Assembly (NCBI GenBank): GCA_965603285.1
Contig: CBFDCK010000002.1
Coordinates: forward strand, 410 to 64,409
From: an uncultured bacterium
GTDB lineage: Bacteria; Chloroflexota; Anaerolineae; Anaerolineales; UBA4823
DNA length: 64,000 nt
Direction: 5' to 3'
Shown: in pieces, positions 22,590-45,185 of the stretch
How the letters are laid out: the number at the start of each line of letters is the position of its first letter
How positions within the stretch are numbered: the stretch's first letter is position 1
Made by a program: the position numbers and the translations under genes
The notes under the pieces: generated by a model
The model's input: the letters and a program-made list of their open reading frames with translations, nothing else
What the model was told of the DNA's origin: nothing
Database searches by the model: none

Positions 22590-22590
22590 A

Positions 22591-23505: not shown

Positions 23506-23528
23506 AATTTATCCTCCAATAATATTAA

Positions 23529-24689
23529 TCAGATGGTGACATCAACCCACTCACCTTCTTTGGCGCTGTGTTCAATTGCCTCACAGAGCACCTGCTCGTA
23601 GTGTCCATCGGCAAAAGTGGGGAAATCTGTCGGGGCAGAATAATCTCCTGCTAAGATGTAGTTATAAACTTTGTTGTATAGTTGCTTGAAAGTATCTGGA
23701 AAGCCCTCATTGTGACCGCCGGGATAAGAAGCGGTGGTACGCGCTTCTGGAGAGAGCAGCGAGGGATCTTTCATCAAAACCTGGTTTGGTTGTGAGCGAT
23801 GCCCGATCCATAATTCGTTGGGGCGTTCCCCATTCCAAACCAATGAGGATAGCGAGCCATTGATCTCAAAGAAAATGCGATTCTTGCGACCAGAGCTGAT
23901 CTGTGAAACCGTCAAAATACCGCGGGCGCCATTTTCGTAATGCAGCAGCACGCTGGCATAATCTTCGGTGTGGATCGGTTTATCTTCGTAATCTTCAGGG
24001 GGCAATAATTTTCCGGTGAACGTTTCCAATGGTTTGAGTGGTTTCTTGCGAATTGGGTGGAAGGTCTTGAAATCGGCGTAAACTTCTTTGACTTTCAGAC
24101 CAGTGATAAAGGTCATCAGATCCAACCAGTGGGAACCAATATCCCCAATGGCGCGCAGCGTACCACCTAGCTCAGGCTCCAGCCGCCAATTCCAATCTGT
24201 AGGCAGCAGCAGCCAATCCTGAAGATAAGAACCTTGCAAGATGAAAATATCGCCCAAATCACCGTTTTGAACCATTTGGCGAGCTTGCTGTGCCATCGGG
24301 TAGAAGCGGATATTGAAGTTAATGACATTGACCAATTCTGTCTTCCGCGCAATTTTGACCAGATCGGCGGATTCCTGGCTGTTCATCGCCAGGGGTTTCT
24401 CACAAACGACATGCTTCCCGGCCTCCAGAGCAGCTTTGGCATGGGGGTAGTGTAAGTAGTTGGGGGTTGCCAGATGAATCACGTGAATATCTGGATCAGC
24501 CAGCATCTTTTCATAAGATGGATAGGCTTTTGTTATGCCTAATTCTGCAGCTTTATCCGATGCTAATTCTGTAGTCGCCTCCGCCAAACCGATCACCCGC
24601 ACATTATTTCGGCGCAACGCCTCCAGATGGGCTGGGCCGATGAATCCGGTGCCGACAATGCCAACATTGAGAGAATTTTTATCGATCAT
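23529..24689 (-). CDS. Gfo/Idh/MocA-family NAD(P)-dependent oxidoreductase
   Basis: N-terminal Rossmann motif [10 protein letters not shown] and the EKP motif (VVCEKPLA). Confidence 0.85.
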
Positions 24690-24740
24690 TCAACACTCCT
24701 TGATAAAACCTAACTGAGGGATATCTTTAGCAAGTAAAGG

Positions 24741-25487
24741 TTAGTAAGCTCCGGGATCTGAGTCATGTGGGGTTTCTATCTCCTGGTCATCTTGCTGAAT
24801 TTTGAATGTATCCAGGATCAAAGCGGTAGCGGTAGCACCACAGCGTGTGACACCCGCATCGATGACTTCGAGCAATGCGGGCAGTGTACGAACCCCACCG
24901 GCGGCCTTCACCTGCACTTTTTCGCTGACATTGGCCCGCATCAGGCGCAGATCATCAAGCGTTGCCCCGCTCGGTGCGAAACCCGTGGAAGTTTTTACCC
25001 AATCAGCCCCGGCTTCTTCACACAATTTACAAGCAGTCACTTTTTCTTCATCGGTGAGATAAGCATTCTCTAAGATAACTTTAACTTTCACCCCACGTGC
25101 ATGGGCAACATCACAAACTGCTTTTATATCCTCGCGCACATAGTTATATTTTCCAGAACGTAATTGGCCGATATTGAGAACCATATCCAGTTCCTTAGCA
25201 CCCTCATCCATGGCCAATTCAGCCTCAACCACCTTGACAGCAGTCAGGTTGCTCCCATGCGGGAATCCCACAACCGTGCTGACCAACACATCCGAATCTT
25301 TAAGCACTTCAGCAGCCAGATTGACATGGCAAGGTTTTACACAAACCGTCGCAACATGGTAACGGTGAGCCAGTTCGCACCCTTCAATAATATCTGTTTC
25401 GATTAATTCAGGTTTGAGTAGAGAATGGTCTATAACCTTGGCGAGTTGTTCATACGTAATCGTCTTACTATTTAGTGCGGTTGTCAT
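24741..25487 (-). CDS. deoC: DeoC/LacD-type class I aldolase (deoxyribose-phosphate aldolase-like)
   Basis: Start taken at MTTALNS (ATG 25487), 4 nt after the upstream stop. IDHSLLKP, VCVKP and the Schiff-base lysine context VKTSTGF. Has an acidic C-terminal tail. Confidence 0.8.
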   Translation of the reverse strand: MTTALNSKTITYEQLAKVIDHSLLKPELIETDIIEGCELAHRYHVATVCVKPCHVNLAAEVLKDSDVLVSTVVGFPHGSNLTAVKVVEAELAMDEGAKELDMVLNIGQLRSGKYNYVREDIKAVCDVAHARGVKVKVILENAYLTDEEKVTACKLCEEAGADWVKTSTGFAPSGATLDDLRLMRANVSEKVQVKAAGGVRTLPALLEVIDAGVTRCGATATALILDTFKIQQDDQEIETPHDSDPGAY

Positions 25488-25491
25488 TATG

Positions 25492-26577
25492 CTAGTTTCC
25501 TTGTTTCCATAAATCGATTGGTTTTGCTGCCGTTGGCGGGTCATATGGAAAGATAATTTTGCGCCCCTCCCCGGCTGACTGGTAGGCAGCATAAATGATT
25601 TTCAATACTTCACGGCCGTCCTGACCTGTTTCCATACAAGTTTCCTTACCGAGCACACAATTGATGAAATGCTGCATTTCCTGCGGGAAACCGTAGTTCC
25701 AAATCTCTTCGAACATGGTGAAGGTATAGCCTTTAGTGGCGCCGGATTTTTCTACAGCATAACCATAACCTTCTTCGGAGTAAGTGAGCAGTGAACTTCC
25801 ACGTAAGAGATCTGCGCGGGTGTGGCCTTTCACCCCATAAATCTCACAGCGATCATCAACGCCGCCACCTTTAGCCCAACTATTTTCCAGCATAGCGACT
25901 TTTCTATCCTCGTATTCGACGATTGTATAAGAATGATCTTCACCTTCAGTGCGATCCTGATGGATATATGTATCCATGAAAGCAGTGACGCTTTTGACTT
26001 TAGGCTTGCCTAACACCCAGCGAGTATACTCGATGGAGTGACAGCCCATATCCATCATTACGCCGCCCCCAGAGCGATTCACATCCCAAAACCAGGGCAT
26101 GTGTGGTCCAGGGTGCTCCTCAGACTGTTTAGCGAGGAACGGCTCCCCAATTGCACCCTCGTCAATTAGAGTCTTCGCCCGAACATACTTAGGCGCGAAG
26201 AGCAGCTCCTCTGCGTACATCAAGAGAACCCCAGCCTGATTGCAGGTCTCGATCATCTCATCAGCCTCTTCCAGGGTGACGCAGAGCGGTTTTTCAATTA
26301 TGACGTGTTTTCCAGCTTTAGCAGCATCTACGGTCACTTGGCAATGCAGGTCGTTGGGAATTCCCACAACTACAACATCGATATCTTTGTCTTCCAACAT
26401 TTCGCAGTGGTCACGATAAGCATCAGGAATGCCGCGTTCTTTAGCAAAAGTTTCAGCATTATTGGGGCTTACCACGGCAACCACTTCGGCGTTATGCACC
26501 CAATCTTTGATAGCAGCATAGTGGATATCGCTAACAAACCCCGCACCGACCATACCAACTTTTACTTTTTTGCTCAT
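25492..26577 (-). CDS. Gfo/Idh/MocA-family oxidoreductase
   Basis: VGMVGAGFVS Rossmann motif and EKPL motif. 361 aa. Confidence 0.85.
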   Translation of the reverse strand: MSKKVKVGMVGAGFVSDIHYAAIKDWVHNAEVVAVVSPNNAETFAKERGIPDAYRDHCEMLEDKDIDVVVVGIPNDLHCQVTVDAAKAGKHVIIEKPLCVTLEEADEMIETCNQAGVLLMYAEELLFAPKYVRAKTLIDEGAIGEPFLAKQSEEHPGPHMPWFWDVNRSGGGVMMDMGCHSIEYTRWVLGKPKVKSVTAFMDTYIHQDRTEGEDHSYTIVEYEDRKVAMLENSWAKGGGVDDRCEIYGVKGHTRADLLRGSSLLTYSEEGYGYAVEKSGATKGYTFTMFEEIWNYGFPQEMQHFINCVLGKETCMETGQDGREVLKIIYAAYQSAGEGRKIIFPYDPPTAAKPIDLWKQGN

Positions 26578-27081
26578 GGGATACTCCTAAACAATATAAA
26601 TTCCTTTGAAATAAATATCCGAAACCGCGCTGACGTCCATAAATTGGGATGAGGACAAGTTGTGATTCTCTAGTGAACACCACGATCAGGGACTTTGCGA
26701 ACGCCTTTATGGACCATTCACGCTCATTTATCCCAAAATTTTCTTCGCCACACCTCTGCCAGAGCTACCTCTGATCCGATTAGAAACTGCAACTCATGGT
26801 CTTACACAGCTTGGTACAACCCATCGGAATTATGGATGTTTCGAACAAGGTTAACCCGTCTTGACAATAGTCTTCAGCGGCATAGAATCTAGAGACCTTT
26901 CCAATTTTACCCGATATTCTCCCGTAGTATGTAAATATTTCATACCAAATGATATCCCCAGATATTTGGTATTCTGCAAACTCGTTTTAGGCCAAAATCC
27001 CCTGGCTGTATCTTTATTACTGCAAATCGATCCGTTTGTAATAGTTGTAAAGTCCGGCATCGCGCATTTCAGCGAAAGCTA

Positions 27082-28047
27082 TCAAAGATTGAGAGTGTCT
27101 CTAGTAATCAATATAGCGCCAACCAGCACGATCGAATCTCCCAATTCACACTTACCGATCTTATAGTTTTTATGGCTGCTTATGAATTCATATTTCTGCG
27201 CATATTTTTTGATCGGCTCGATCAGCAGATCTCCCATATTCGATACTCCGCCACCAATTGCAATCACTTCCACATTCACCAAGCAAAGCATATTCGCGAG
27301 TCCCAAACCCATTGAATAAGCAATCAGATCGATCTCTTTTAATGCGAATTCATCACAGGCGCGTGCCGCCTCCACCAGCTTGCGAGCATCGATAGCCTGG
27401 GCATCCCCGCCGGCCAACTCCATCAGGAACGAGTCATGGGGGACATATTTTGCCGTTCGCAAACGTTCTTCAATCGCCCAACCCGAACACAGGTTTTCTA
27501 TCTTTTCGGGTTTGCCCGGCTGGTCATGGGTCCAATCCGGCACATAAGTTTGCCCAAATTCTCCAGCGCCATATCCTTGACCATCATACAACTGTCCATT
27601 AATTACAATTCCGCCACCTACTCCGCTGCCCATATTGGTATAAAAGAAATATCGACTACCAACGCCGCTGCCATTGTTATATTCCCCCCAAGTAGCTGCA
27701 TTCGAATCATTGGCGATGACGGTTGGCAAGTTGAACTTCTCCTCAAACCAGGCTTTTAACGGAAAACCGCTCCAGCCGGGTATCTGCACCGATTTCAAAA
27801 CTTCGCCCTTAGCAGAATCGATCGGTCCGCCAAACCCACAGCCCAGCGCAACCAATTCTCCTTTCAGGTCACTAACTCTGGAAAACATCGCCGGTATATG
27901 GTCTTCAAGCCATTCCTGGATGCCTCGAGCGCCCGCATCGACATTCACTCTTCCCTGGTGTGTGTCAAGAATTTCACCATCACGGGAACTGATCGCTAAT
28001 TGAAGCTTGGTACCCCCGATTTCTACACCCAATATATATTTTTCCAT
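27082..28047 (-). CDS. Divergent ROK/ASKHA-type sugar kinase-like protein lacking the canonical zinc motif
   Basis: Start taken at MEKYILGVEIGGTKL (ATG 28047). The usual GEIGH..CxCGxxGC is replaced by GEFGQTYV...LCSG. Confidence 0.7.
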   Translation of the reverse strand: MEKYILGVEIGGTKLQLAISSRDGEILDTHQGRVNVDAGARGIQEWLEDHIPAMFSRVSDLKGELVALGCGFGGPIDSAKGEVLKSVQIPGWSGFPLKAWFEEKFNLPTVIANDSNAATWGEYNNGSGVGSRYFFYTNMGSGVGGGIVINGQLYDGQGYGAGEFGQTYVPDWTHDQPGKPEKIENLCSGWAIEERLRTAKYVPHDSFLMELAGGDAQAIDARKLVEAARACDEFALKEIDLIAYSMGLGLANMLCLVNVEVIAIGGGVSNMGDLLIEPIKKYAQKYEFISSHKNYKIGKCELGDSIVLVGAILITRDTLNL

Positions 28048-28180
28048 CTGATATGCTCCATCTTTTATATTATGCCCTGAAAAACATGTCATTCGGTTTG
28101 GCTGCATCCAAATCAGATATGGATAGCACATATTCCAATTATTTGTACGGTCAAACTAGCACTTATTGTTTCATTGCCCC

Positions 28181-31182: not shown

Positions 31183-31905
31183 GTGAACAATGTACAAGAA
31201 ATACTGAAAATGGTTGACCACTCTCTCTTAAGCCCGTCTCTAACCGATGAACAGTTGAAGGAAGGCTGCGCTGTGGCTGCCCAATACCACACCGCTTCTG
31301 TATGCGTAAAGCCCTACCATGTACGCCAGGCCACCGAATACTTAAAAAGCACAGACGTGCTGGTTGGTGCGGTGATTGGCTTCCCACACGGCAACAGCAG
31401 CATAGCAATCAAAGCAGCCGAAACAGAGCAGGTCATCGCAGACGGCGCGGTTGAAGTCGATATGGTCATTAATATCGGCAAGGTGTTAAGTGAAGATTGG
31501 GACTATGTTGATAAGGAAATTGAAACGATCAGAATAATAACAAAAAAAGCCGGTGCTGCTCTTAAGGTGATCTTTGAAAATGACCTGTTGCCAGATGACC
31601 AATACAAGATCATACTTTGTGAGATTTGCAGTAAACACAGCGCAGATTTTGTTAAAACATCTACTGGTTACAACTACATAAAAGGACCGGATGGAAAATA
31701 TAGCTACCAGGGCGCTACGATGCACGACTTGAAACTCATGCGAGAACATTCCGCCCCCGAAGTTCAAGTAAAAGCAGCCGGTAACTCTGGTTCTTTGGAA
31801 ATCGTCTTGAAATTGCGCGAGATCGGCGTGACCCGCACCGGAACCGGTAAAACGGTTGAATTATATAAAAACGCGGTTGATAAATTTGGTCTTGAGAACA
31901 AGTAG
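31183..31905 (+). CDS. DeoC-type class I aldolase, second paralog
   Basis: GTG start. VDHSLLSP, VCVKP, VKTSTGY. Carries an insertion (NYIKGPDGKYSYQ) after the catalytic lysine segment, relative to the first paralog. Confidence 0.8.
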   Translation: MNNVQEILKMVDHSLLSPSLTDEQLKEGCAVAAQYHTASVCVKPYHVRQATEYLKSTDVLVGAVIGFPHGNSSIAIKAAETEQVIADGAVEVDMVINIGKVLSEDWDYVDKEIETIRIITKKAGAALKVIFENDLLPDDQYKIILCEICSKHSADFVKTSTGYNYIKGPDGKYSYQGATMHDLKLMREHSAPEVQVKAAGNSGSLEIVLKLREIGVTRTGTGKTVELYKNAVDKFGLENK

Positions 31906-31940
31906 AAAATACCAAACACAAGCATCAATTAATATTGTAG

Positions 31941-33000
31941 ATTCAACTCGTAAGTGCAACAACGATATTCGGTGAAAAAGGCAAGCTGAGGTAGGATAAG
32001 CGTTGCCAAAAGCCATCGAATAAATCGAAGGAGCACTTATGAATTCCTATAAACAGCTTGCCTACGAACAAAGATACCAGATTTCTTTCATGTTGAAAAT
32101 GGGATTTAGCCAAACAAAGATAGCCAATGAGATTAGTGTCCACAGATCCACGATCAGCCGGGAATTGCGTCGCAATCGAGGCAAACGTGGCTACAGGCCT
32201 AAACAAGCGCACCAAATGGCTCTCAATAGAAGAAATAAAGCGAATTATCGCTTCCCGCCCATCACCTGGGACCTGATAGAGAGTTTGATCCGAATGGATT
32301 GGAGCCCGGAACAGATTTCGGGGTGGTTGAAAAACAGACAAGATTTCCACATCAGTCATGAATGGATTTACCAACACATCTTGGTTGACAAACAGAACGG
32401 TGGTGACCTCTACCAGCATCTGCGTTGTCAAAAGAAACGCCGTAAACGCTACGGCAGCTACGATCGACGCGGTAAACTGCCTAACCGGGTGAGTATCGAC
32501 CAACGCCCTGCTGAAGTCGAAACTCGTCAACGTTTGGGTGACTGGGAAGTTGATACCATGATCGGAAAAAGACATAAGCAAGCCTTAGTAACCCTTATCG
32601 AACGTAAGTCTCGATTAGTTTTGATGCGCAAGGTTGAACAGCGCACTGCTGGAGCTGTTGAAGATGTAATCACTCACCTGTTAGAGCCCTGGACACATGA
32701 TGTGCATACGATCACAGCGGATAATGGGAAGGAATTCGCTCATCATGAACAAATCGCTAAAAAATTGAAAACAGAATTCTACTTTGCTCATCCGAATGCT
32801 GCTTGGGAACGAGGTTCGAATGAAAACGTCAATGGCTTGATAAGACAATACTTTCCCAAGAAGCAATCCTTTGATAATATTACAGATGATGAAACTGAAC
32901 TGGTTGTGAATTTGCTCAATAATCGACCACGAAAATGCCTTGATTTCAAAACACCTATTGAGGTATTCTTAGAACAATCTGTTGCACTTAATACTTGAAT
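31941..33000 (+). mobile_element. IS30-family insertion sequence (about 1060 bp)
   Basis: Terminal inverted repeats attcaactcgtaagtgcaac (31941-31960) and gttgcacttaatacttgaat (32981-33000) match 16/20. They enclose one IS30-type transposase ORF whose stop lies inside the right repeat. Confidence 0.8.
32039..32998 (+). CDS. IS30-family DDE transposase
   Basis: 319 aa. N-terminal HTH (GFSQTKIANEISVHRSTISRELRRN). DDE core with DNGKEF and WERGSNENVNGLIRQYFPK. Confidence 0.9.
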   Translation: MNSYKQLAYEQRYQISFMLKMGFSQTKIANEISVHRSTISRELRRNRGKRGYRPKQAHQMALNRRNKANYRFPPITWDLIESLIRMDWSPEQISGWLKNRQDFHISHEWIYQHILVDKQNGGDLYQHLRCQKKRRKRYGSYDRRGKLPNRVSIDQRPAEVETRQRLGDWEVDTMIGKRHKQALVTLIERKSRLVLMRKVEQRTAGAVEDVITHLLEPWTHDVHTITADNGKEFAHHEQIAKKLKTEFYFAHPNAAWERGSNENVNGLIRQYFPKKQSFDNITDDETELVVNLLNNRPRKCLDFKTPIEVFLEQSVALNT

Positions 33001-33209
33001 CCAAGTATCAAAAAACACCACTTTATATCTAAACATAATTAATAGTTAAGTAATTGCTGTGGCAGAAAAAAGAACAATATTATCTATGATAGAATCTGCC
33101 AATTACGATGCCAAATGAAGAGGAGGTGGTTGTTGGAAAATGCACACAAGTACGGCCTAAGTAAATCCGTTTCAACAAAAGTATAAAAACTAACTATAAG
33201 GAGAATTGA

Positions 33210-35372
33210 ATGAAGAAGTTACAAAAATCCCTAGGGCTGTTGGTTGCTTTGATGCTGTTCATCAGCTTGCTGGCCGCCTGCGCATCACCTGAACCTGCAA
33301 CTGAAGTACCAGCAGCCGAAGAACCAGCAGCTGAAGTACCAGCAGCCGAAGAACCAGTAGCCGAAGAACCGGCTGTTGAAGGCGGGACCTACACCATTGG
33401 TATTTCCAACCCCTTCATCACCAGCGAATACCGCACCCAGATGATCGATGATCTTGAAACAACCAATGAGGAATATATGGCATTGGGTCTGACCAATGAA
33501 TTGGTGATCGAGAGCGAGAACACCGATGTTGCTGGTCAGCTTCAGCAGATCGAAAACCTGATGAACCAGGGTGTCGATGCCATATTGGTCAACCCCGGTG
33601 ACGCAGTAGCCTTGAACCAGATCCTGGAAGAAGCCGTCGAAGCGGGCATCGTCGTCATTTCGATCGACCAGGAAATTGAGGCTGCCGGTGTGGTCAACGT
33701 TGGTCACAACCAGAAAGAATGGGCCCAGACCAGCGCTGCATGGTTCGCCGAAGAACTGCAAGAGGGCGACGTTGTATTGATCGAAGGCTTCATCGGTCAC
33801 CCCGCCAACGAATACCGCATGTCCGGTGTCTATGAAGAATTTGAAGACTACCCGGGTATCAACGTGCTAGCCAGTGAAACTGGCAGTTGGGACGAAGCAA
33901 CCGGTCAGCAGGTGATGGCAGACTTCTTGGCTGCATATCCTGACCTGGACGGTTACTGGACCCAGGACGGCATGGCTATCGGCGCGATGGAAGCCGTAAA
34001 AGCTGCCGGTCTCGATGAATATCCGCTGGGCGTTGGCGAAGGCCGCGTTAAGTTCCTCAAACTGTGGAAAGAAGCTCTGGAAGCAGATCCGGAATTCAAG
34101 TCCTTTGCCGTAGCTAACGCCCCCGGCGTGGCCGCAACTGGTCTACGCATTGCCGTGGAGTTGCTAGAGGGTCAGGAACTGAAAGATGAATCCCTTAGCG
34201 GGCAATTCGGCACAACCGTCATCGTTCCGATCCCAGTTACCGTAGACCCTGAAAATTTCAATGAAATCTACGCTGAATATGTAGATGGTGGCTATCCGGA
34301 TTCTTACCTCCTGGATGGCATTATGACCATCGAAGAAGTACAGGCTTTGTTCGAAGGAGCCATAGAACCAGCAGCCGAAGAGCCGGCTGTTGAAGGCGAG
34401 ACCTTTACCATTGGTATTTCCAACCCCTTCATCACTAGCGAATACCGCACCCAAATGATCGATGACCTTGAAACGACCAATGAAGAATACGTGGAAATGG
34501 GTCTAAGCAATGAACTGGTGATCGAGAGCGAGAATACCGATATTGCAGGTCAGCTTCAGCAGATCGAAAACCTGATGAACCAGGGTGTCGATGCTATTTT
34601 GGTCAACCCTGGTGACGCAGTAGCCTTGAACCAGATCCTGGAAGAAGCCGTCGAAGCGGGCATCGTCGTCATTTCGATCGACCAGGAAATTGAGGCTGCC
34701 GGTGTGGTCAACGTTGGTCACAACCAGAAAGAATGGGCCCAGACCAGCGCTGCATGGTTCGCCGAAGAACTGCAAGAGGGCGACGTTGTATTGATCGAAG
34801 GCTTCATCGGTCACCCCGCCAACGAATACCGCATGTCCGGTGTCTATGAAGAATTTGAAGACTACCCGGGTATCAACGTGCTAGCCAGTGAAACTGGCAG
34901 TTGGGACGAAGCAACCGGTCAGCAGGTGATGGCAGACTTCTTGGCTGCATATCCTGACCTGGACGGTTACTGGACCCAGGACGGCATGGCTATCGGCGCG
35001 ATGGAAGCCGTAAAAGCTGCCGGTCTCGATGAATATCCGCTGGGCGTTGGTGAAGGCCGCGTTAAGTTCCTCAAACTGTGGCAAGAAGCCCTGGAAGCAG
35101 ATCCAGAATTCAAGTCCTTTGCCGTAGCTAACGCCCCCGGTGTTGCCGCTACTGGTCTACGCATTGCTATGGAGTTGTTACAAGGAAAGGAATTAAAGGA
35201 TGAATCCCTTAGCGGGCAATTCGGCACAACCGTCATCGTTCCGATCCCGGTTATTGTGACCCCAGATAATTTCGCTGAAATCTACGCTGAATACGTAGAT
35301 GGCGGCTTTCCGGATTCTTACCTTCTCGATGGCATTATGACCCTCGAAGAAGTACAGGCGTTGTTCGAATAG
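33210..35372 (+). CDS. Sugar ABC transporter substrate-binding lipoprotein with two tandem, near-identical type-I periplasmic-binding modules
   Basis: 720 aa. Lipobox LLAACAS and a Pro/Ala/Glu-rich tether. Two ~330-aa Peripla_BP-like modules follow (GTYTIGISNPFITSEY... and ETFTIGISNPFITSEY...). AAGGAG RBS. Confidence 0.85.
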   Translation: MKKLQKSLGLLVALMLFISLLAACASPEPATEVPAAEEPAAEVPAAEEPVAEEPAVEGGTYTIGISNPFITSEYRTQMIDDLETTNEEYMALGLTNELVIESENTDVAGQLQQIENLMNQGVDAILVNPGDAVALNQILEEAVEAGIVVISIDQEIEAAGVVNVGHNQKEWAQTSAAWFAEELQEGDVVLIEGFIGHPANEYRMSGVYEEFEDYPGINVLASETGSWDEATGQQVMADFLAAYPDLDGYWTQDGMAIGAMEAVKAAGLDEYPLGVGEGRVKFLKLWKEALEADPEFKSFAVANAPGVAATGLRIAVELLEGQELKDESLSGQFGTTVIVPIPVTVDPENFNEIYAEYVDGGYPDSYLLDGIMTIEEVQALFEGAIEPAAEEPAVEGETFTIGISNPFITSEYRTQMIDDLETTNEEYVEMGLSNELVIESENTDIAGQLQQIENLMNQGVDAILVNPGDAVALNQILEEAVEAGIVVISIDQEIEAAGVVNVGHNQKEWAQTSAAWFAEELQEGDVVLIEGFIGHPANEYRMSGVYEEFEDYPGINVLASETGSWDEATGQQVMADFLAAYPDLDGYWTQDGMAIGAMEAVKAAGLDEYPLGVGEGRVKFLKLWQEALEADPEFKSFAVANAPGVAATGLRIAMELLQGKELKDESLSGQFGTTVIVPIPVIVTPDNFAEIYAEYVDGGFPDSYLLDGIMTLEEVQALFE
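33301..33360 (+). repeat. 30-bp tandem repeat x2 encoding the PAE-rich tether
   Basis: ctgaagtaccagcagccgaagaaccagcag is repeated 29/30. Confidence 0.85.
33366..35369 (+). repeat. In-frame 1014-bp tandem duplication (about 1.98 copies) inside the SBP gene
   Basis: The anchor ggctgttgaa occurs at 33371 and 34385, giving a period of 1014 nt = 338 codons. A central block of about 430 nt is identical in both copies. The edges are diverged. Confidence 0.9.
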
Positions 35373-35387
35373 TCTGTTCTCCAACTA

Positions 35388-35423
35388 GGTTCTCTGGCGA
35401 TCGATCGCCAGAGAACCTTTTTT
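35388..35423 (+). terminator. Intrinsic terminator after the SBP gene
   Basis: Perfect 30-nt palindrome ggttctctggcgatcgatcgccagagaacc followed by tttttt. Confidence 0.8.
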
Positions 35424-35515: not shown

Positions 35516-37054
35516 TTGAAATCGATATCACTTAATGCCCAACACATCACCAAACATTTTGGAGGAGTGGTCGCCCTCAGGGGTGGCTCGTTAAATGTCA
35601 ACTCTGGTGAAATTCTAGCCCTGGTAGGAGCGAATGGCAGCGGGAAAAGCACCCTGGCAAAGATTATTACCGGGGTTGTCTCTAGAGATTCGGGGGAGAT
35701 CATCTACAACTCAGAACCGGTTGTATTCAATAACCCGGCGGCAGCGCAAAAAGTCGGAGTCACCGCTGTTTACCAGGAACTTAGTTTAGTACCTTCGATG
35801 ACAGTGGCGGAAAACATCTGGCTGGATCACGAGCCGCTGACCAAATTCGGCCAAGTGGATACCCGCAAGACGATCAGCGAAACCAGGAAACTGCTAAAAC
35901 TGTTTGAAGGCACATTTCAGTCAACCCTGAGACCTAATGCTGTGATCGATTCGCTTCCCCCCGATGAAAAACAGATCGTCGAAATCCTCAAAGCCATCAG
36001 CCGCAAACCGGATGTTTTGATCCTGGATGAGGCGACTGCCAGTCTAGACCGCCGCCAGGTTGATTGTTTATTCACCCTGCTCATGGAATGGAAAGATCAG
36101 AACATGGCTTTGATCTTCGTCTCGCACCGTTTGGATGAGATCTTTCGGATCGCAGACCGTGCGGTTGTGTTAAGAAATGGCGATTCTGTGGGGGAAGTAA
36201 AGATCGCTGAAAGCTCACAAACCGAGATCGTTTCCTTAATGGTCGGGCATGAAAGCGGACTAGATAGAACTGAACGCACCACTTTAAAAATATCAGATGA
36301 AATTGCACTGGAGTTAACAGACCTAAAAACGGATGTGCTGGCGGGCGTTAACTTCACTGTAAAAAAAGGTGAACTGGTGGGGATTGGTGGTTTACGCGGC
36401 CAGGGTCAAACAAACCTGCTGCACACCTTGTTCGGCAATAAGCGCTTTGAAGGTCAGATCACACTATTTGGCGAAACAATGTCAGCAAACCATCCCCGCG
36501 CCGCCATGAAAAAGGGTATCGCTCTTGTGCCCGGTGACAGGGCTACCCAAGGCTTGTTATTAATCCGCTCCATATTTGAAAACTTGCATCTGCCCAATTG
36601 GCGGATATATGGTTTCCCTTTAAAACTAACAAAAGCCTATTCTGACGCTAATGGTATTGCCAAAACATTGAACATGGTGATGGAATCACTTGACGCACCG
36701 GTAAGTAGCCTCTCCGGCGGGAACGCCCAAAAAGTGGTGATTGGGAAATGGCTGTTACGCGACCCCAAACTCTTATTGTTGGATGACCCCACTAAGGGTG
36801 TTGATGTTGGTACCAAAGCCGAATTTTACAATCTTCTAGATCGCCTGTGCGAAACAGGAACTACAATCCTCTTCTACAGCTCCGATGACCAGGAATTGGT
36901 TGACCTTTGCCCTCGAGTACTGGTAATGCAGGACGGTTTCATAAAAGCCGACCTCTCTGGCAATAGTCTTACGAAGGCAAACCTGGTTTCCACCAGTATG
37001 GGCGTAGGCTTAGATGCGGTAAATAACAACAAGCCTGGTAAACATGGACAATAA
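35516..37054 (+). CDS. Sugar ABC transporter ATP-binding protein (duplicated ABC domains, CUT2/RbsA-MglA type)
   Basis: 512 aa, TTG start. Walker A GANGSGKST, LSGGNAQK signature and two ABC halves. Confidence 0.9.
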   Translation: MKSISLNAQHITKHFGGVVALRGGSLNVNSGEILALVGANGSGKSTLAKIITGVVSRDSGEIIYNSEPVVFNNPAAAQKVGVTAVYQELSLVPSMTVAENIWLDHEPLTKFGQVDTRKTISETRKLLKLFEGTFQSTLRPNAVIDSLPPDEKQIVEILKAISRKPDVLILDEATASLDRRQVDCLFTLLMEWKDQNMALIFVSHRLDEIFRIADRAVVLRNGDSVGEVKIAESSQTEIVSLMVGHESGLDRTERTTLKISDEIALELTDLKTDVLAGVNFTVKKGELVGIGGLRGQGQTNLLHTLFGNKRFEGQITLFGETMSANHPRAAMKKGIALVPGDRATQGLLLIRSIFENLHLPNWRIYGFPLKLTKAYSDANGIAKTLNMVMESLDAPVSSLSGGNAQKVVIGKWLLRDPKLLLLDDPTKGVDVGTKAEFYNLLDRLCETGTTILFYSSDDQELVDLCPRVLVMQDGFIKADLSGNSLTKANLVSTSMGVGLDAVNNNKPGKHGQ

Positions 37055-38036
37055 ATTCGATCTTCGAGATTGGTGGATAAATTTCAATAAGAAAAACACC
37101 TATGTGTTGGCCTTGGTCATCTTTATTGTGACAACCGCAGCATATCTTGTACTGCAACCAAATGCATTTGATGAAGGTGTACTCACCAGGCTGCTCACCA
37201 GCAACTTCCGCACATGGCTGCCGGTAATATTGTTAGCCATCGGGCAAACAATTGTTATGTTGGGCGGCGGTTTAGATCTGTCATCCGGATCGATGGTTAT
37301 ACTTGGCAATGTAATCTTGGCTATTTCGATCACCTCAAATGAAGAACCGTGGTTCAACCTTATGATCGTTCTCGTCGTGGTTGCGTTTGGTTTGATCGCT
37401 GGATTTTTAAATGGCTTTTTAACTGCATATATGGGTTTGCAGCCGATGATAACTACATTCGCCACCAGTTTTGTTTACAGTGGTTTAGCACTCCTGATCT
37501 TACCAAACCCCTGGGGTAATATCCCCAGAGAATATACAAAAATGTATCGCAACACGACTTGGTTTGGCATTCCCCTCGCCTTGTTCATCATTGCCGCCAT
37601 CCTCGTCATTTGGGCAGTGATCAGGAACCGGAAATATGGACGCTTCCTGTTCGCCGTTGGTGGAAAGGCCGACGCCGCCTATTACACCGGCGTGCGGGTT
37701 ACACGCGTCAGGATCTCCACCTATGTGATCTCAGGCTTCTTTTCTTCACTGGCTGCCATTAGCTACACACTCCTGACAGGCTCAGGCTCTGCCGTCAGCG
37801 GTGCAGAAATGACGCTGACCGCTATCACTGCTGCCATTTTGGGAGGCACATCAATGGCCGGTGGCTCTGGTTCGCTTATTGGTTCTGTCCTTGGTGCCAT
37901 CATTCTGGGGACGATTAAGAATCTGATCTCACTATCAAAGATGGATTCATGGTACCGGGTATTAGTGAACGCTACCGTGATTATTGTGGCGCTTGCTAGT
38001 CCCGGAATCATCAATCTTTTTCGGAGGAAAAAATAA
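37044..38036 (+). CDS. ABC transporter permease (RbsC-like, BPD_transp_2)
   Basis: 330 aa, polytopic. Overlaps the ATPase stop by 11 nt. Confidence 0.9.
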   Translation: MDNKFDLRDWWINFNKKNTYVLALVIFIVTTAAYLVLQPNAFDEGVLTRLLTSNFRTWLPVILLAIGQTIVMLGGGLDLSSGSMVILGNVILAISITSNEEPWFNLMIVLVVVAFGLIAGFLNGFLTAYMGLQPMITTFATSFVYSGLALLILPNPWGNIPREYTKMYRNTTWFGIPLALFIIAAILVIWAVIRNRKYGRFLFAVGGKADAAYYTGVRVTRVRISTYVISGFFSSLAAISYTLLTGSGSAVSGAEMTLTAITAAILGGTSMAGGSGSLIGSVLGAIILGTIKNLISLSKMDSWYRVLVNATVIIVALASPGIINLFRRKK

Positions 38037-38038
38037 TC

Positions 38039-39025
38039 ATGAGTGAAAATATCCAATCCTCTGAAAAGAAGAAATTCACCATATCGCCGCAAGTTACCGC
38101 TCTGCTGCTGGCTTTACTTTTGTTCTTAGCTAGTGGATTTTTGCCCAACGGGTTCAATTCAGTAGATACTGCAATCAACCAGGCTTTTAACATTTTGCGT
38201 CTTTCCTCCTTCCTGGCATTGATCGCCGCCGGGCAGACCTTGGTGATCATAAGTGGTGGTGAAGGTATTGATTTGTCCGCGGGTGCAATCGTTACTATCG
38301 CAGTGTTGATCACCTACAAACTAGTTAACGGTGACAATTCTTTAGTGCTGCCTGTATTATTGTTCGTGATCGCCTGCGGTGCAGCGATTGGATTGATCAA
38401 CGGTCTGGGGATCGCTTACCTTAAGATCCCCCCATTTGTTATGACCCTCGGTATGGCAGGGGTTGTAATAGGCACCTTGCTAGTCGTAACTCGCGGCCTT
38501 TACGATGGAAAAGTTGCGCCGATCATGACAAATATTATCGCTCGCGATCTGGTTTGGGGGATTCCGGGTATGTTGTTCTTGTGGATTATTTTCGGTGTAT
38601 TGATGACGATCTTATTGGAACGCACACGTTATGGTAAACAGCTCTTTGCTATCGGTGTGAACCGACTGACTGCCCGTCTGTCCGGTGTGCGTGTTGATCG
38701 AATGGTAGTCTCCACTTACACCATCGCCGGCGCATTAGCTGCCTTTTCGGGATTCATTCTGGTCGGCTTTACGCAGAACGCCGGTCTGCTGGTTGGCAAC
38801 CAATATCTGTTCCCCTCCATCGCGGCGGTTGCAATCGGCGGCACGCTGCTGTCTGGCGGCAAGGGCAGTTATTTCGGCACGATGGCTGGCGCCATCGTGA
38901 TCCAACTGATCACCAGCTTGCTTACCACCATGCAGTTACCGGAAGCGATCCAACAGATCGTTTACGGCTCGATCCTGATAGTCCTTTTGATCGTTTATGG
39001 ACGTGAGAAAGGAATACGACTGTAA
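38039..39025 (+). CDS. ABC transporter permease (RbsC-like), second subunit
   Basis: 328 aa, polytopic. Starts 3 nt after the previous stop. Confidence 0.9.
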   Translation: MSENIQSSEKKKFTISPQVTALLLALLLFLASGFLPNGFNSVDTAINQAFNILRLSSFLALIAAGQTLVIISGGEGIDLSAGAIVTIAVLITYKLVNGDNSLVLPVLLFVIACGAAIGLINGLGIAYLKIPPFVMTLGMAGVVIGTLLVVTRGLYDGKVAPIMTNIIARDLVWGIPGMLFLWIIFGVLMTILLERTRYGKQLFAIGVNRLTARLSGVRVDRMVVSTYTIAGALAAFSGFILVGFTQNAGLLVGNQYLFPSIAAVAIGGTLLSGGKGSYFGTMAGAIVIQLITSLLTTMQLPEAIQQIVYGSILIVLLIVYGREKGIRL

Positions 39026-40546: not shown

Positions 40547-41698
40547 ATGAACTCAAAAGAGCGCCTTCAATCTACCTTGTCACACCAAATTCCAGATCGT
40601 ATCCCCTTCGATCTCGGCGGGTCGCCAATGTCTGGTATCCATATCGCTGCCTATGAAAAATTGATCAAATATCTTGGGTTTGACGATCTCGAAACCGAGG
40701 TCTATGACCATATTCAACAACTGGCGCTCCCCCATGAGCAGGTATTAAAACAGCTTGAGGTTGATATCCGGACCATCAGATCAAGCAGCCCGGTTTCTTT
40801 CAAGCTGGATATTCAAAATATTGGAGACTATACCGAATACACGGATGAATGGGGAGTACGTTGGCGGAAGCCTCTTGTGGGTGGTTTTTATTATGACATG
40901 GTTTTCCACCCACTTGAATATGCTCAAAACCTAACGGAGCTCAGGGATTATACCTGGATAAATCCGGATGATGAAAGCCGCTACTCTGGTCTGGAAGAAA
41001 TAGCCGCTAATTACGCCAATAACGGATTAGGTGTAATGCATTGGTCAATTGGACCCGGCGTATCCGAAACACACGCCTGGTTGCGCGGCTATGAAAAATA
41101 CTATACTGATTTTTATTTAAATCCGGATATCGCTGAGACCATTATGTCAAAAGTTGTGGACATCAAGATCGCATACTGGAAAAACGCCTTATCCAGATCA
41201 GGCAAACACATAGATGTGGTCGTTGAAGCGGACGATTTGGCTGGACAGAACGGGCCGTTGATCTCCCCCAAGGCGTACCGTCAGTTCATTAAACCCCAGC
41301 ATACCCGCCTTTTTTCGGCCATCAAAAAGATCGCGCCACATGTGAAAATATTTTTCCACAGCTGTGGTGCAGTCCACGACTTTATTGGTGATTTCATCGA
41401 AAGTGGCATTGACATTCTCAACCCCGTGCAAAAATCGGCGACGGGAATGGACTTGCAGCAGTTAAAGCAAGAATTTGGTAAAGATGTCGTTTTTTGGGGT
41501 GGCGGTGTCGATACCCAAAGGGTATTCGATGGCGATGATATCAAGGCGGTCAGAGTAGATGTGCGCCAGAACATCACAACCCTGAAACCAGGCGGAGGAT
41601 TTGTATTCACACCTGTGCATAACACCCAGGCCAATGTACCCCCACAGAATTACATGGCAATGTGGGAAACGCTCCAAGAAGAAGGTCTTTACCGGTAA
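40547..41698 (+). CDS. Uroporphyrinogen-decarboxylase (URO-D) superfamily protein, MtaA/CmuA-like
   Basis: 383 aa. N-terminal ERLQSTLSHQIPDRIPFD. TIM-barrel-like length. HSCG (H-x-C) motif at KIFFHSCGAV. Not in a heme-biosynthesis context. Confidence 0.7.
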   Translation: MNSKERLQSTLSHQIPDRIPFDLGGSPMSGIHIAAYEKLIKYLGFDDLETEVYDHIQQLALPHEQVLKQLEVDIRTIRSSSPVSFKLDIQNIGDYTEYTDEWGVRWRKPLVGGFYYDMVFHPLEYAQNLTELRDYTWINPDDESRYSGLEEIAANYANNGLGVMHWSIGPGVSETHAWLRGYEKYYTDFYLNPDIAETIMSKVVDIKIAYWKNALSRSGKHIDVVVEADDLAGQNGPLISPKAYRQFIKPQHTRLFSAIKKIAPHVKIFFHSCGAVHDFIGDFIESGIDILNPVQKSATGMDLQQLKQEFGKDVVFWGGGVDTQRVFDGDDIKAVRVDVRQNITTLKPGGGFVFTPVHNTQANVPPQNYMAMWETLQEEGLYR

Positions 41699-41709
41699 AA
41701 AGAGTAAAC

Positions 41710-42549
41710 ATGTACAGCAAACGAAATTATCTGAACAAAAGCTATATCGAGATCATCAATCCAAACATTACACGCGGCAAGATCAAGTTCGCCATTTTTG
41801 ATTTTGACGGCACTATCTCCTTGATCCGCGAGGGTTGGCAACAGATCATGATCTCCATGATGGTTGATATCCTTATGCAAATACCAGAGCATGAAAGCCG
41901 GGACGAGATCGAAATAATCGTGCGTACCTATGTAGCCAATACAACAGGGAAACAAACCATCTACCAGATGATCCGCTTAGCGGAAGAGATCGAAAAAAGA
42001 GGCAGCGTGCCCCAAGAACCGCTGGCATATAAAAATCTATATCACGATCTGCTGATGAAGCGCATCATTGAACGGCTGGACGGCTTGCGCAGCGGTGATC
42101 TCCAACCAGAAGATTGGGCTGTGCCCGGCGCATTAGATATGCTGGCTGTTCTGAATCAGTATGAGGTCACTCACTTCCTGGCTTCCGGCACTGATGAAAA
42201 ATACGTGTTAGATGAAGCCGATCTTTTAGGCGTTTCGAAATACTTCGTCGGTATATATGGCGCATTAGATGATTACAAGAATTTCTCAAAAAAGATAGTC
42301 ATTCAAAAGATCATCAAAGACAACCAACTCAGCGGTCCCGAACTGGTCGGTTTCGGTGATGGTTACGTGGAAATTGAAGACACCAAAGCGGTCGGCGGTA
42401 TTGCCGTTGGGGTTGCCACCAATGAAACCGAACGCCAAGGTATTGATGAATGGAAGCGTGAGCGGTTAATCTCTTCTGGCGCAGATATCATTATGCCTGA
42501 TTTCCGCCAATATCAATATCTTATTAATTATTTAATGTTGGAGAAGTGA
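41710..42549 (+). CDS. HAD-superfamily hydrolase (phosphatase-like)
   Basis: Start taken at MYSKRNY (ATG 41710). Motif I FDFDGTIS, a capped HAD layout, and the late motif GFGDGYVE. Confidence 0.7.
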   Translation: MYSKRNYLNKSYIEIINPNITRGKIKFAIFDFDGTISLIREGWQQIMISMMVDILMQIPEHESRDEIEIIVRTYVANTTGKQTIYQMIRLAEEIEKRGSVPQEPLAYKNLYHDLLMKRIIERLDGLRSGDLQPEDWAVPGALDMLAVLNQYEVTHFLASGTDEKYVLDEADLLGVSKYFVGIYGALDDYKNFSKKIVIQKIIKDNQLSGPELVGFGDGYVEIEDTKAVGGIAVGVATNETERQGIDEWKRERLISSGADIIMPDFRQYQYLINYLMLEK

Positions 42550-42551
42550 AC

Positions 42552-43526
42552 ATGCCTTACCCCATTTTTGACCGCTCGAAATTGACTTTACTCTCGCTAT
42601 CAGATCGGGAACATGACCTATCCATGGATGTAATCCTAGACTTATCAGATGTGATCCCCACTTTTGAGAACGGGAATTTAGAAACTCTCGCCAAGCGCAT
42701 CGTTAAAGCCCACCAGCGCGGAGCAGCTGTGATCTTTTTAATGGGCGCCCATGTGATTCGCAGCGGCGTATCTCGTTTTCTGATCGACCTGATGGAAAAA
42801 GGAATGATCGACCTGATCGGATGCAACGGGGCAGTCACCATTCACGATATGGAATTTGCCATGATCGGCAAAACGACTGAGAGTGTTGCCAGGTATATTC
42901 AGGTCGGGCAGTTTGGTCTGTGGAAAGAGACCGGTCGGGTAAATGATGCCGCTAAATTCGCTTACGAGCATGGTCTTGGTCTGGGTGAATCAATTGGCAA
43001 AATGATCCATGACAACCCCGACGAATTCCCAAATAGCGATATAAGTGTGTTGGCAACCGGCTACGGCCTGGGCATCCCAATCACCGTGCACGTTGGCATT
43101 GGACAAGACATCGTTCACGAACACCCGAACTTTGACGGGGCTGCTTACGGCGCGGCCAGCTACCGCGACTTCCTGACGTTCGTCAACTGCGTCGAAAACC
43201 TGGAGGGAGGCGTGATGCTCAATATTGGTACAGCCGTGATGGGACCAGAAGTGTACCTGAAGGCATTGGCAATGGCCCGCAACGTAGCGATGCAGGAGAA
43301 TCGAGTGATTAAACATTTCACCACAGGCGTTCTTGATATAGTCGACCTGGGAGAAAACCCAGGAAAAGAAGCCCCAAAAACCGACGCCGTTTATTATTTC
43401 CGGCCATTTAAAACAGTCTTAGTGCGTACCGTTGCCGATGGTGGTGAGAGTTATTATGTCAGAGGAAATCACCGGGTAACCGTTTCCAATCTGCACCGTT
43501 TGATTTTAGAAAACCTTCAGGCGTGA
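42552..43526 (+). CDS. Deoxyhypusine-synthase-like (DHS-like Rossmann fold) family protein, function unknown
   Basis: The segment FLMGAHVIRSGVSRFLIDLMEKGMIDLIGCNGAVTIHDMEF resembles the DHS core (G..SSG.R......L......VD..VTT.G..E.D). GIPITVHVGIG resembles IPVFCPA.TD.S.G. The assignment is tentative. GTG 42546 is an alternative start. Confidence 0.45.
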   Translation: MPYPIFDRSKLTLLSLSDREHDLSMDVILDLSDVIPTFENGNLETLAKRIVKAHQRGAAVIFLMGAHVIRSGVSRFLIDLMEKGMIDLIGCNGAVTIHDMEFAMIGKTTESVARYIQVGQFGLWKETGRVNDAAKFAYEHGLGLGESIGKMIHDNPDEFPNSDISVLATGYGLGIPITVHVGIGQDIVHEHPNFDGAAYGAASYRDFLTFVNCVENLEGGVMLNIGTAVMGPEVYLKALAMARNVAMQENRVIKHFTTGVLDIVDLGENPGKEAPKTDAVYYFRPFKTVLVRTVADGGESYYVRGNHRVTVSNLHRLILENLQA

Positions 43527-43530
43527 GATT

Positions 43531-44583
43531 ATGGAAAACAAAAGGCTTGAAAAAATCCTTACATCTTTCCCGGAAGGAAAGATCGCCGTTCTGGGTGATT
43601 TCTTCCTCGACCTGTACATATCATTGGATCGGTCCTTATCCGAGCTTTCACTGGAAACCAATTTAGAAGCATTCCAGGCTGTGGACATCAAAGACCTTCC
43701 AGGCGCTGCGGGCGTGGTAACCAATAACCTGGTCGCTCTAGGAGCCAGCACATCTGCGATCGCATACACCGGTGATGACGGCAACGGCTACATGCTGCGT
43801 AAAGAACTGAGCCAACGGGGCGTTAACATCGAACACCTGCTGCAATCTACAGAACGCTTCACGCCTACTTATATAAAACCGATGATGACCGAAGTGGCTG
43901 GCTCCACGATTGAGCTCAACCGCATCGATGTCAAGAACCGCACACCTAATTCCTTAGAACTGGAAAATGAGATCATCCAGCGGATTAGAGTTGCCATTAA
44001 GGATCATGATGGCATCTTGGTCGCTGAGCAGGTCAAAGATGATAGCTGTAGTGTGCTCTCGCCGCGTGTGCGCATGGCGCTGGCGGATATATCGCTAGCG
44101 AATCCCGACAAAGTATTTATTGTAGATTCCAGGCATTTCACCGCCAAATATGAGCATGTCTCGCTCAAAGTGAATTTATTCGAAGCCATTAAAGCCGCTG
44201 GCGAGCTTAATGCTCGATTCCATACTCAAAAGAAAGCCGACAAGCTGGAAACAGCCATAATCTGCCAGCGCTTGCTATGGAAAAAGGTCAAAAGACCAAT
44301 TTTCATCACCCTTGGATCAAAAGGCATCAGCGGCTACGCAGATGGGGAAGATTTTTATCATCCCGGATATCACACCACTGGACCAATCGATATCGTCGGC
44401 GCTGGCGATTCGGTACTGGCTGGCTGCGGGGTATCCCTATGTGCCGGCGCTATGCCTGAGGAAGCTGCCTATATCGGCAATCTGATCGGTTCGATCACCA
44501 TTGAACAAATCGGCACGACCGGTATTGCCACGCCAGAACAGCTGCTTGAAAGACATTACGAATACCAAAAACAAAACCACTAA
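43531..44583 (+). CDS. PfkB-family carbohydrate kinase, HldE/RfaE kinase-domain-like
   Basis: 350 aa. N-terminal VLGDFFLDLY...PGAAGVVTNNLVALGA resembles heptose-7-P kinases. PfkB signature DIVGAGDSV. Confidence 0.8.
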   Translation: MENKRLEKILTSFPEGKIAVLGDFFLDLYISLDRSLSELSLETNLEAFQAVDIKDLPGAAGVVTNNLVALGASTSAIAYTGDDGNGYMLRKELSQRGVNIEHLLQSTERFTPTYIKPMMTEVAGSTIELNRIDVKNRTPNSLELENEIIQRIRVAIKDHDGILVAEQVKDDSCSVLSPRVRMALADISLANPDKVFIVDSRHFTAKYEHVSLKVNLFEAIKAAGELNARFHTQKKADKLETAIICQRLLWKKVKRPIFITLGSKGISGYADGEDFYHPGYHTTGPIDIVGAGDSVLAGCGVSLCAGAMPEEAAYIGNLIGSITIEQIGTTGIATPEQLLERHYEYQKQNH

Positions 44584-44607
44584 CTTCATGCAAAAGGAAA
44601 ATCAAAT

Positions 44608-45177
44608 ATGAAAGCTTATCAAGATATCATCGTTGACTACATTGATGACCTAAAATCCGTTTTGGACCAACTCTCCAAACCGGATCTCCTGGCGATCATC
44701 AACGCACTGGCAAAAGCCCGCCAGGATGAAAAAACTATCTACATTTGCGGCAACGGCGGCAGCGCGTCTACCGCCAGCCACATGGTTTGTGACCTCTCAA
44801 AGAACACCCGTAAAGATGAAGCTAAACGCCTCAAAGTGATCGGATTATCCGATAACATAGCCTTAATGACCGCCTATGCCAATGACGAAGGCTATGACCG
44901 AATTTTTGCCGAACAGATCATATCCTTGATCCAGCCGGGTGATGTGCTGCTGGCTATCAGCGGCAGCGGAAACTCTCCTAATGTGTTGCTCGGTGTAGAA
45001 ACCGCCAAGCAAATCGGCGCCACAACAATCGGGCTGACCGGTTTTCAAGGCGGACAGCTTATAGAGTTGGTCGATATTTGCCTGATTGTTCCCTACAACA
45101 GTCTGGAACAGATCGAAGATGTGCATTTGATTATCAACCACATCCTGACCATCAGCCTTGGGCAGGGCAAAGCATAA
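44608..45177 (+). CDS. SIS-domain sugar-phosphate isomerase (GmhA/DiaA-like)
   Basis: 189 aa. YICGNGGSASTASHMVCDL and ISGSGNSPNV motifs. Confidence 0.8.
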   Translation: MKAYQDIIVDYIDDLKSVLDQLSKPDLLAIINALAKARQDEKTIYICGNGGSASTASHMVCDLSKNTRKDEAKRLKVIGLSDNIALMTAYANDEGYDRIFAEQIISLIQPGDVLLAISGSGNSPNVLLGVETAKQIGATTIGLTGFQGGQLIELVDICLIVPYNSLEQIEDVHLIINHILTISLGQGKA

Positions 45178-45185
45178 AAAAGAAA

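Follow-up and report, generated by a model that had tools for sequence, protein, structure and literature searches.

A two-module CUT2-type binding lipoprotein of Anaerolineae with a probable mosaic of gene conversion between its modules

A stretch of DNA from an uncultured bacterium of the Anaerolineales (Chloroflexota; GenBank assembly GCA_965603285.1, contig CBFDCK010000002.1, positions 410 to 64,409), here called the window at its full length of 64,000 nucleotides (nt), encodes a CUT2-type substrate-binding lipoprotein of 720 amino acids (aa) with two binding modules in one open reading frame (ORF; 33210-35372, + strand). The explanation we favour, with a probability of roughly 0.85, is that this lipid-anchored two-module protein undergoes recurrent gene conversion within its own gene and that its modules would act as receptors for the same ligand. 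In this explanation, an in-frame tandem duplication of the end of a tether plus a whole binding module would have produced two complete type-I modules, arranged as beads on a string behind a disordered tether of ~35 aa and joined by a linker of ~13 aa. The 1-kb copies would recombine, conversion overwriting one copy with the other mostly across the centre of the unit, and the unit ends, especially the 3' quarter, would be converted less often and so accumulate old paralog-specific differences. The window would thus have been left with a conversion tract of at least 440 nt, in which synonymous divergence (dS) is 0, between edges with a dS of about 0.4; the same recombination would occasionally delete one unit, producing single-module genes.

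Within the window, the evidence is a direct, in-frame repeat with a period of exactly 1014 nt (338 codons), which comparison of the + strand with itself at an offset of 1014 places at approximately 33344-34357 for copy 1 (tether end and module 1, residues ~46-383) and approximately 34358-35369 for copy 2 (linker residues 384-396 and module 2, residues 397-720). This agrees with a first-pass annotation of the sequence, which had described two complete binding modules in one ORF and the same 338-codon period; the Peripla_BP_4 domain is found twice in the protein. Of 1013 nt, 59 differ between the copies; they affect 52 codons, with 33 synonymous and 19 amino-acid changes. The near-identity of the halves had been recognized, but the number of differing residues had been put at ~17. 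There are no differences in a 440-nt core, comprising 33597-34036 in copy 1, which we interpret as a recent conversion tract, and its partner 34611-35050 in copy 2. The identical core had also been seen, but as ~430 nt at 33606-34034. Both edges are diverged, with 25 differences in 253 nt at the 5' edge (33344-33596, partner 34358-34610) and 34 in 320 nt at the 3' edge (34037-34356, partner 35051-35369), and the edge segments cited earlier as examples (EEYMALGLTNE/EEYVEMGLSNE and TVDPENFNEIY/IVTPDNFAEIY) are correct. When 59 differences were placed randomly, a difference-free run of 440 nt arose in 0 of 100,000 simulations (P<1e-5).

Both copies are under purifying selection, with a ratio of nonsynonymous to synonymous divergence (dN/dS) of about 0.12. 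By the Nei-Gojobori method, the edges have a dS of 0.39, a dN of 0.045 and a dN/dS of 0.12 (dS 0.43 and dN/dS 0.09 for residues 61-129 of the 5' edge, nt 33390-33596), and the identical core has a dS of 0 over 97 synonymous sites. Functional constraint might, without any conversion, have kept the core identical, and the core does hold most of the predicted ligand-contact residues and many family-invariant residues. Selection alone is nevertheless extremely improbable, as the synonymous sites of the core are identical too, and the core differs at 45 or more nt sites between the window and its relative L081, with every one of these differences common to both copies of each gene.

Comparative data support the conversion reading, which the first-pass annotation had also proposed, far more strongly than the window alone. 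Module identity within each protein ranges from 75 to 99.7% among 117 two-module homologues, far above the identity between orthologues; these homologues match the query at 51-83%. In a tree of individual modules, deep branches pair the N module with the C module of its own protein, and in shallow groups N modules group with N modules and C modules with C modules. Using a codon alignment of 47 genes, we sorted sites for each pair of genes as concerted (N = C in each gene, differing between genes), orthologous (N = N and C = C across genes, N differing from C) or cross-pattern, the last providing a noise control. Concerted, orthologous and cross sites numbered 54, 40 and 3 for L029/L030 (Thermanaerothrix), 41, 31 and 1 for L028/L029 (two cultured strains), 30, 37 and 3 for L005/L006, 47, 21 and 3 for L032/L034, and 26, 50 and 7 for L022/L027, so that in several pairs both signals exceed the noise control by far. 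The L029/L030 sites form only 4 runs, with 53 consecutive concerted sites followed by a 40-site orthologous block that has one concerted site inside it; in L005/L006 and L032/L034, the core is concerted and the edges are orthologous. In a runs test, the observed clustering was reached in 0 of 20,000 shuffles for each of L029/L030, L028/L029, L005/L006 and L032/L034, and P was 0.0009 for L022/L027. The orthologous-pattern sites indicate that the duplication predates the species split, and the concerted tracts indicate that the core was homogenized after it.

Divergence values show the same contrast. The modules of L029/L030 are 25-27% diverged from each other in the 3' edge, where the species are 9% diverged, and 0-1% diverged in the core, where the species are 7% diverged; figures for L028/L029 are similar. 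The downstream ATPase gene, compared in three pairs, is 12-26% diverged, above the module values. Significantly long identical tracts occur in 29 of the 47 genes, across which the 3' quarter has a two- to three-fold excess of inter-module differences. Conversion is known to have an edge effect, which divergence would strengthen by suppressing recombination, and the 3' enrichment would fit this established theory. Genomes of cultured strains and long-read assemblies show the concerted pattern, with core divergence between species matching edge divergence. Taken together, paralogs are closer than orthologues, the tracts are contiguous and include synonymous sites, and the duplication is older than the species in L029/L030, L028/L029, L005/L006, L032/L034 and window/L082, as concerted evolution demands. 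The conversion interpretation is well supported.

The window's own lineage has the same mixture. Compared with L082 (93% nt identity), the overlapping part of the 3' edge (34098-34355) contains 15 orthologous, 2 concerted and 1 cross site; the orthologous sites indicate that the edge differences in the window are old and that the identical core results from later conversion. Comparison with L081 (P0001, about 83% identical) gave 103 concerted, 3 orthologous and 3 cross sites, and L081 independently has a nearly difference-free core. In the close relatives P0281 and P0284 the modules are far more uniform: they match at ~96-97% when a portion of the linker is counted in, and by eye they show no difference in those edge segments where the window's copies diverge, indicating that tract extents vary between close lineages. 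An identical binding protein is encoded on a second contig, L083, from a separate ENA assembly record.

A metagenome assembler might have created the duplication or the core identity: the window protein comes from metagenome contigs, and its 90% cluster abounds in fragments broken at the repeat, alongside a collapsed single-module form. We consider such an artefact very improbable. The architecture recurs in >115 independent sequences that include cultured strains, long contigs and complete chromosomes; the identical protein of L083 belongs to a separate assembly record; the diverged edges and the junction would form a unique linear path through an assembly graph; and core divergence between species matches that of the edges, which is unexpected from a chimeric consensus. 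As the origin of the architecture, an assembly artefact is excluded by isolates and long-read assemblies.

The two-module lipoprotein is real and widespread, and it is apparently uncharacterized. A search of 5.8 billion proteins listed 120 matches, 117 of them two-module proteins (638-767 aa, 51-83% identical to the query) whose named sources are Anaerolineales, Anaerolineaceae, Bellilinea and Chloroflexota. A scan with one representative genome per species (80 loci) yielded ~50 two-module genes in Anaerolineae, including those of the cultured Bellilinea caldifistulae, Thermanaerothrix daxensis and T. solaris, with two-module genes also on complete chromosomes or megabase-scale long contigs, and ~22 complete single-module genes. 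At 50% clustering, the family was reduced to one representative, and ~10 more distant proteins with two stretches of Peripla_BP_4 were matched. With >115 homologues and ~50 species-representative genomes, the first-pass view that a free two-module lipoprotein would be unusual does not hold. That annotation had also raised the prospect of two-module orthologues being both widespread and characterized: they are widespread, but no characterization was found in the literature or the PDB. Sequence and fold searches of the PDB returned no tandem Peripla_BP_4 structure, the solved relatives being single modules of 270-350 aa. A literature search found no paper on free tandem sugar-binding proteins and none on gene conversion in binding proteins, which is weak evidence given that subscription journals were little covered. 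Six genes in the scan (L026, L039, L044, L063, L064 and L068) are interrupted by frameshifts or premature stops, L068 having a stretch of unknown residues; the interruptions more probably reflect errors of assembly or sequencing than pseudogenes. These genes were excluded from the module analyses, although the first modules of L063 and L068, which are intact, were used in the tree as single-module sequences.

Single-module genes are scattered through the module tree, and a Brevefilum-like clade is entirely single-module. The scattered relatives fit collapse across the repeat. One member of the window's 90% cluster, P0276, has a single complete module that is chimeric, being N-type at positions 59-95 but C-type at 107-374, exactly the product expected from recombination or assembly collapse across the identical core. 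P0019, P0050 and P0106 were considered as single-module evidence for a very recent duplication and were rejected, as alignment identified them as 5'-truncated two-module genes, each beginning in the tail of module 1 (P0019 at a contig end). The 90% cluster also contains many metagenome fragments of 82-466 aa, mostly on contigs under 11 kb, and the four examined (P0019, P0050, P0106 and P0278) begin in the 3' part of module 1; short-read assemblies evidently break or collapse at the repeat, or else genuine deletion variants are in circulation.

Several observations count against the explanation that we favour. L053, which lies on a complete chromosome and is the nearest species-representative relative, is sister to the window gene plus P0001 and is single-module. 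Pairs from deep clades have no paralog signal (398 orthologous versus 349 cross sites), and paralog-diagnostic columns at the protein level, over all homologues, give a signal within clades only. With the single-module L053 and no deep paralog signal, the window's clade may have had a younger duplication of its own. The window protein is known from metagenome contigs, the longest of 75.9 kb, and assembly from short reads can fuse repeat copies that are nearly identical; in a contig of short-read type, the core could therefore look slightly more uniform than it is. The pocket map discussed below is a prediction from alignment to the Escherichia coli ribose-binding protein and a list of its ligand contacts. 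Finally, we infer the ligand, the docking and the benefit of two modules alike.

The points on ancestry raise the question of whether many lineages, the window's among them, each gained the two-module form on their own and recently from single-module ancestors, its modules being similar through youth. Such recurrent, independent duplication is possible but in our judgement rather unlikely. It would accommodate the scattered single-module genes, the all-single Brevefilum-like clade and the position of L053, in whose clade with the window two gains are more parsimonious than four losses; mechanistically, however, a unit is far more easily lost, through homologous recombination, than gained, which makes such parsimony counts unreliable. 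The absence of paralog-specific signal in deep pairs also favours separate origins, as do junction linkers that range from 8 to 65 aa between deep clades. Yet every junction lies 1-3 residues from the C-terminus, a very small target for independent in-frame events. Two-module members in unrelated CUT2 families point the same way as the linker lengths, and in outgroup rooting, more distant single-module proteins failed to cluster and joined the tree at points within the family. What independent duplication cannot explain is the coexistence of orthologous and concerted blocks in one gene, or 25% divergence at the edges of a gene beside 0-1% in its core. Several origins are in any case compatible with later conversion, so this alternative bears on the number of origins and not on the mosaic. 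As judged from sequence comparison, the data would be compatible with either one ancient duplication followed by many collapses or several duplications.

The anatomy of the protein is that of a tethered lipoprotein with two folded domains. Its N-terminus reads MKKLQK, followed by a hydrophobic stretch and LAA directly before C24, so that a signal peptide and lipobox (MKKLQKSLGLLVALMLFISLLAA followed by C24) occupy 33210-33281. L-A-A-C agrees with the lipobox consensus, C24 is invariant in 33 homologues, and the protein is accordingly classed, by signal peptide and lipobox, as a predicted bacterial lipoprotein. Next comes a 15-nt tandem repeat of 5.3 copies (33291-33370; Tandem Repeats Finder) that encodes a disordered (PAAEE)n tether. 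The last ~15 tether codons lie inside the 1014-nt unit, and their second copy is the inter-module linker. Pfam detects Peripla_BP_4 as two stretches, with 346 bits against a gathering score of 35.1. In an AlphaFold2 (AF2) model with a mean confidence score (pLDDT) of 84.5, residues ~60-383 and 397-720 form two folded modules, with pLDDT mostly 84-96; tether residues 21-58 and the ~13-aa linker (384-396) are disordered, with pLDDT <50, and a predicted TM-score (pTM) of 0.50 indicates that the modelled modules have no fixed mutual orientation. The module sequence matched 2ioy at E = 5.8e-23, and in Foldseek the modelled modules superposed on 4pe6, 2ioy and 7e7m with target-normalized TM-scores of ~0.8-0.86, consistent with the two-lobed type-I/cluster B fold of ribose-type binding proteins.

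Two features of the tether and anchor vary. The number of (PAAEE)n repeats differs within the 90% cluster (P0281, P0284 and P0276), and slippage appears to be the source of this length variation. In L038, L041, L047, L031, L037 and L033 (Thermoflexus, Aggregatilinea and related clades), the gene encodes an ordinary signal peptide without the lipobox cysteine, and L038, L041 and L047 have a conserved C-[TS]-G-P motif before each module. Anchoring may thus differ between clades.

On homology and a sugar-catabolic neighbourhood, the window protein would be expected to bind a monosaccharide or related small sugar. Positions equivalent to ribose-binding-protein contacts are identical in both modules (N67, F69, I70, N128, D153, Q154, R203, W227 and N303), all of them except I70 are family-invariant, and none of the 19 differing residues falls among the predicted contact positions. 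The suggestion in the first-pass annotation that duplication broadens specificity finds no support, because the two modules share their predicted pocket residues. In our proposed mechanism, both modules would bind the same monosaccharide-like ligand and each would dock in turn on a translocator of two permeases, so that two receptor sites per lipoprotein would raise the local receptor concentration rather than widen specificity. By analogy with the GlnPQ importers discussed below, the protein would probably benefit from having two receptor sites close to the translocator on each lipid anchor.

Alternatively, the edge differences might be adaptations, with each module suited to its own ligand or docking role. 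Independent clades have repeatedly left the 3' quarter unconverted, some differences between N and C modules run in the same direction in many orthologues (for example, V/Y at 316/654 and S/A at 241/579), and the modules have different neighbours, the tether versus the linker on the N-terminal side and the linker versus a free C-terminus at the other end. We nonetheless judge sub-functionalization unlikely: besides the shared pocket residues, the edge dN/dS of 0.12 gives no sign of positive selection, the modules of P0281 and P0284 are far more uniform than those of the window, and an edge effect of conversion combined with a barrier set by mismatch divergence would explain the pattern without selection.

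The genes downstream on the + strand mark the system as a CUT2-type importer. A CUT2-type ATP-binding cassette (ABC) ATPase with two nucleotide-binding domains (35516-37054; ABC_tran twice) matches RbsA, XylG and YtfR-like models at ~388 bits, below their equivalog cut-offs, and is followed by two BPD_transp_2 permease genes (37044-38036 and 38039-39025) predicted to form a heterodimeric translocator. The gene order is the same in L081, L082 and L083, and a double-domain ATPase with BPD_transp_2 permeases is what would be expected of a CUT2 importer operon. NCBIfam has no equivalog for the binding protein, the best match scoring 79 bits against a cut-off of 335. A strong terminator-like hairpin (35387-35418, + strand), with a 14-bp stem that includes 8 G-C pairs and a T-run, lies between the stop of the binding-protein gene and the start of the ATPase gene. 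Such a hairpin after a binding-protein gene is the usual arrangement for producing binding protein in excess over membrane components, and here it probably attenuates read-through, so that the binding protein would be made in excess.

The surrounding genes are sugar-catabolic: a GntR/UTRA regulator, a xylose-isomerase-like TIM barrel, GFO/IDH/MocA dehydrogenases, deoC (above its cut-off), a PfkB kinase, SIS and HAD genes and a sugar-phosphate isomerase-like gene. Upstream, a second sugar-catabolic set on the minus strand (21624-28131) encodes a ROK protein and a DeoC/LacD-like aldolase along with two GFO/IDH/MocA proteins. On the + strand downstream (40547-46319), two URO-D-like genes (40547-41698 and 45078-46319) occur with HAD, PfkB and SIS genes. 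The region around the transporter looks like a carbohydrate-utilization island. An IS30-family insertion sequence (IS; 31940-33001) lies between deoC (31183-31905) and the binding-protein gene, with 22-nt inverted repeats (31940-31961/32980-33001) and a transposase (32039-32998) scoring 316 bits against a cut-off of 80. The element is absent from the syntenic locus L081, and the L083 contig ends 138 nt upstream of the binding-protein gene, near the IS end. It may cut the transporter genes off from a promoter lying further upstream.

Other CUT2 binding-protein families, 27-40% identical to the window protein, also hold two-module members (P0150, P0163, P0166, P0178, P0183, P0186, P0204, P0216, P0246, P0250 and P0300-P0412); one is named as Anaerolineales and others are labelled 'fructose transport system'. 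The halves of these proteins are 60-99.7% identical, against a between-protein median of 36%; in a second, unrelated family with the same pattern, within-protein identity is 63-98% against that median. A tandem design with similar halves thus recurs across families. Going further, we tentatively suggest, as an idea that may well prove too broad, that free, lipid-anchored tandem binding proteins represent a general sugar-importer design of Anaerolineae/Chloroflexota that has so far gone undescribed, present in several unrelated CUT2 families, held at exactly two copies by selection, with long-lasting conversion inside the gene that is functionally favoured and no mere by-product, and with single-module genes as recurrent collapse products. 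Homogenization would be favoured because both modules must fit the same ligand and the same permease docking surface.

Compared with known systems, each module of the window protein corresponds to a full Peripla_BP_4 domain, as in ribose-, allose- and xylose-type CUT2 binding proteins (2ioy, 4pe6 and 2dri). In contrast to the solved CUT2 proteins, it has two modules per polypeptide, a lipid anchor and a long disordered tether. The best-studied tandem binding domains are those of GlnPQ; SBD1-SBD2 of the Lactococcus lactis protein are joined by a 14-aa linker, function largely independently and compete for docking (PMC8025302). The window protein likewise has two tandem binding domains on a short flexible linker of ~13 aa, and by this analogy each module would be expected to work largely on its own, the two competing for docking, with several receptor sites thus placed beside the translocator. 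It is not a member of the GlnPQ group, however, being unfused, of another fold and with identical predicted pockets. The GlnPQ domains are fused to a membrane domain, whereas the window ORF ends at 35372, has no BPD_transp domain and is followed by permeases encoded as separate genes; the GlnPQ fold is type-II (SBP_bac_3, cluster F), whereas that of the window protein is type-I/cluster B Peripla_BP_4; and the GlnPQ domains differ in specificity and affinity, whereas here the predicted pockets do not differ and the DNA of the modules is kept 80-100% identical. Nearly all work on tandem binding domains has been done on importers of the GlnPQ type, to which the two-module lipoprotein family, known from many uncultured and a few cultured Anaerolineae, offers a natural contrast, one that permits a direct test of whether doubling the receptor sites per anchor speeds uptake via lipoprotein receptors.

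Long-lasting concerted evolution has been reported to be rare in prokaryotes, with 26 genes found, such as tufA/tufB (Wang & Chen 2018, PMC6053082); the terms 'ABC' and 'binding protein' are absent from the main text of that paper. Its cases are separate genes, whereas here the converting units are adjacent domains in one reading frame, and, unlike those cases, the edges that escape conversion in the window's family preserve proof of the old duplication. There is also a likeness to the repeats of repetitive surface or structural proteins such as spider silk (cited in that paper), tandem in-frame units that are homogenized and whose copy number is changed by recombination. Those repeats are short and numerous, whereas the present family has two copies (or one, when collapsed) of a 338-codon globular domain in many species. 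For annotation, single-module or truncated 'ribose-binding proteins' from Anaerolineae bins need caution because the repeat breaks or collapses short-read metagenome assemblies. For the study of recombination, the family provides an unusually clean prokaryotic case of concerted evolution, with old edges around a core converted after speciation and tract borders that can be read at single-site resolution in many independent lineages.

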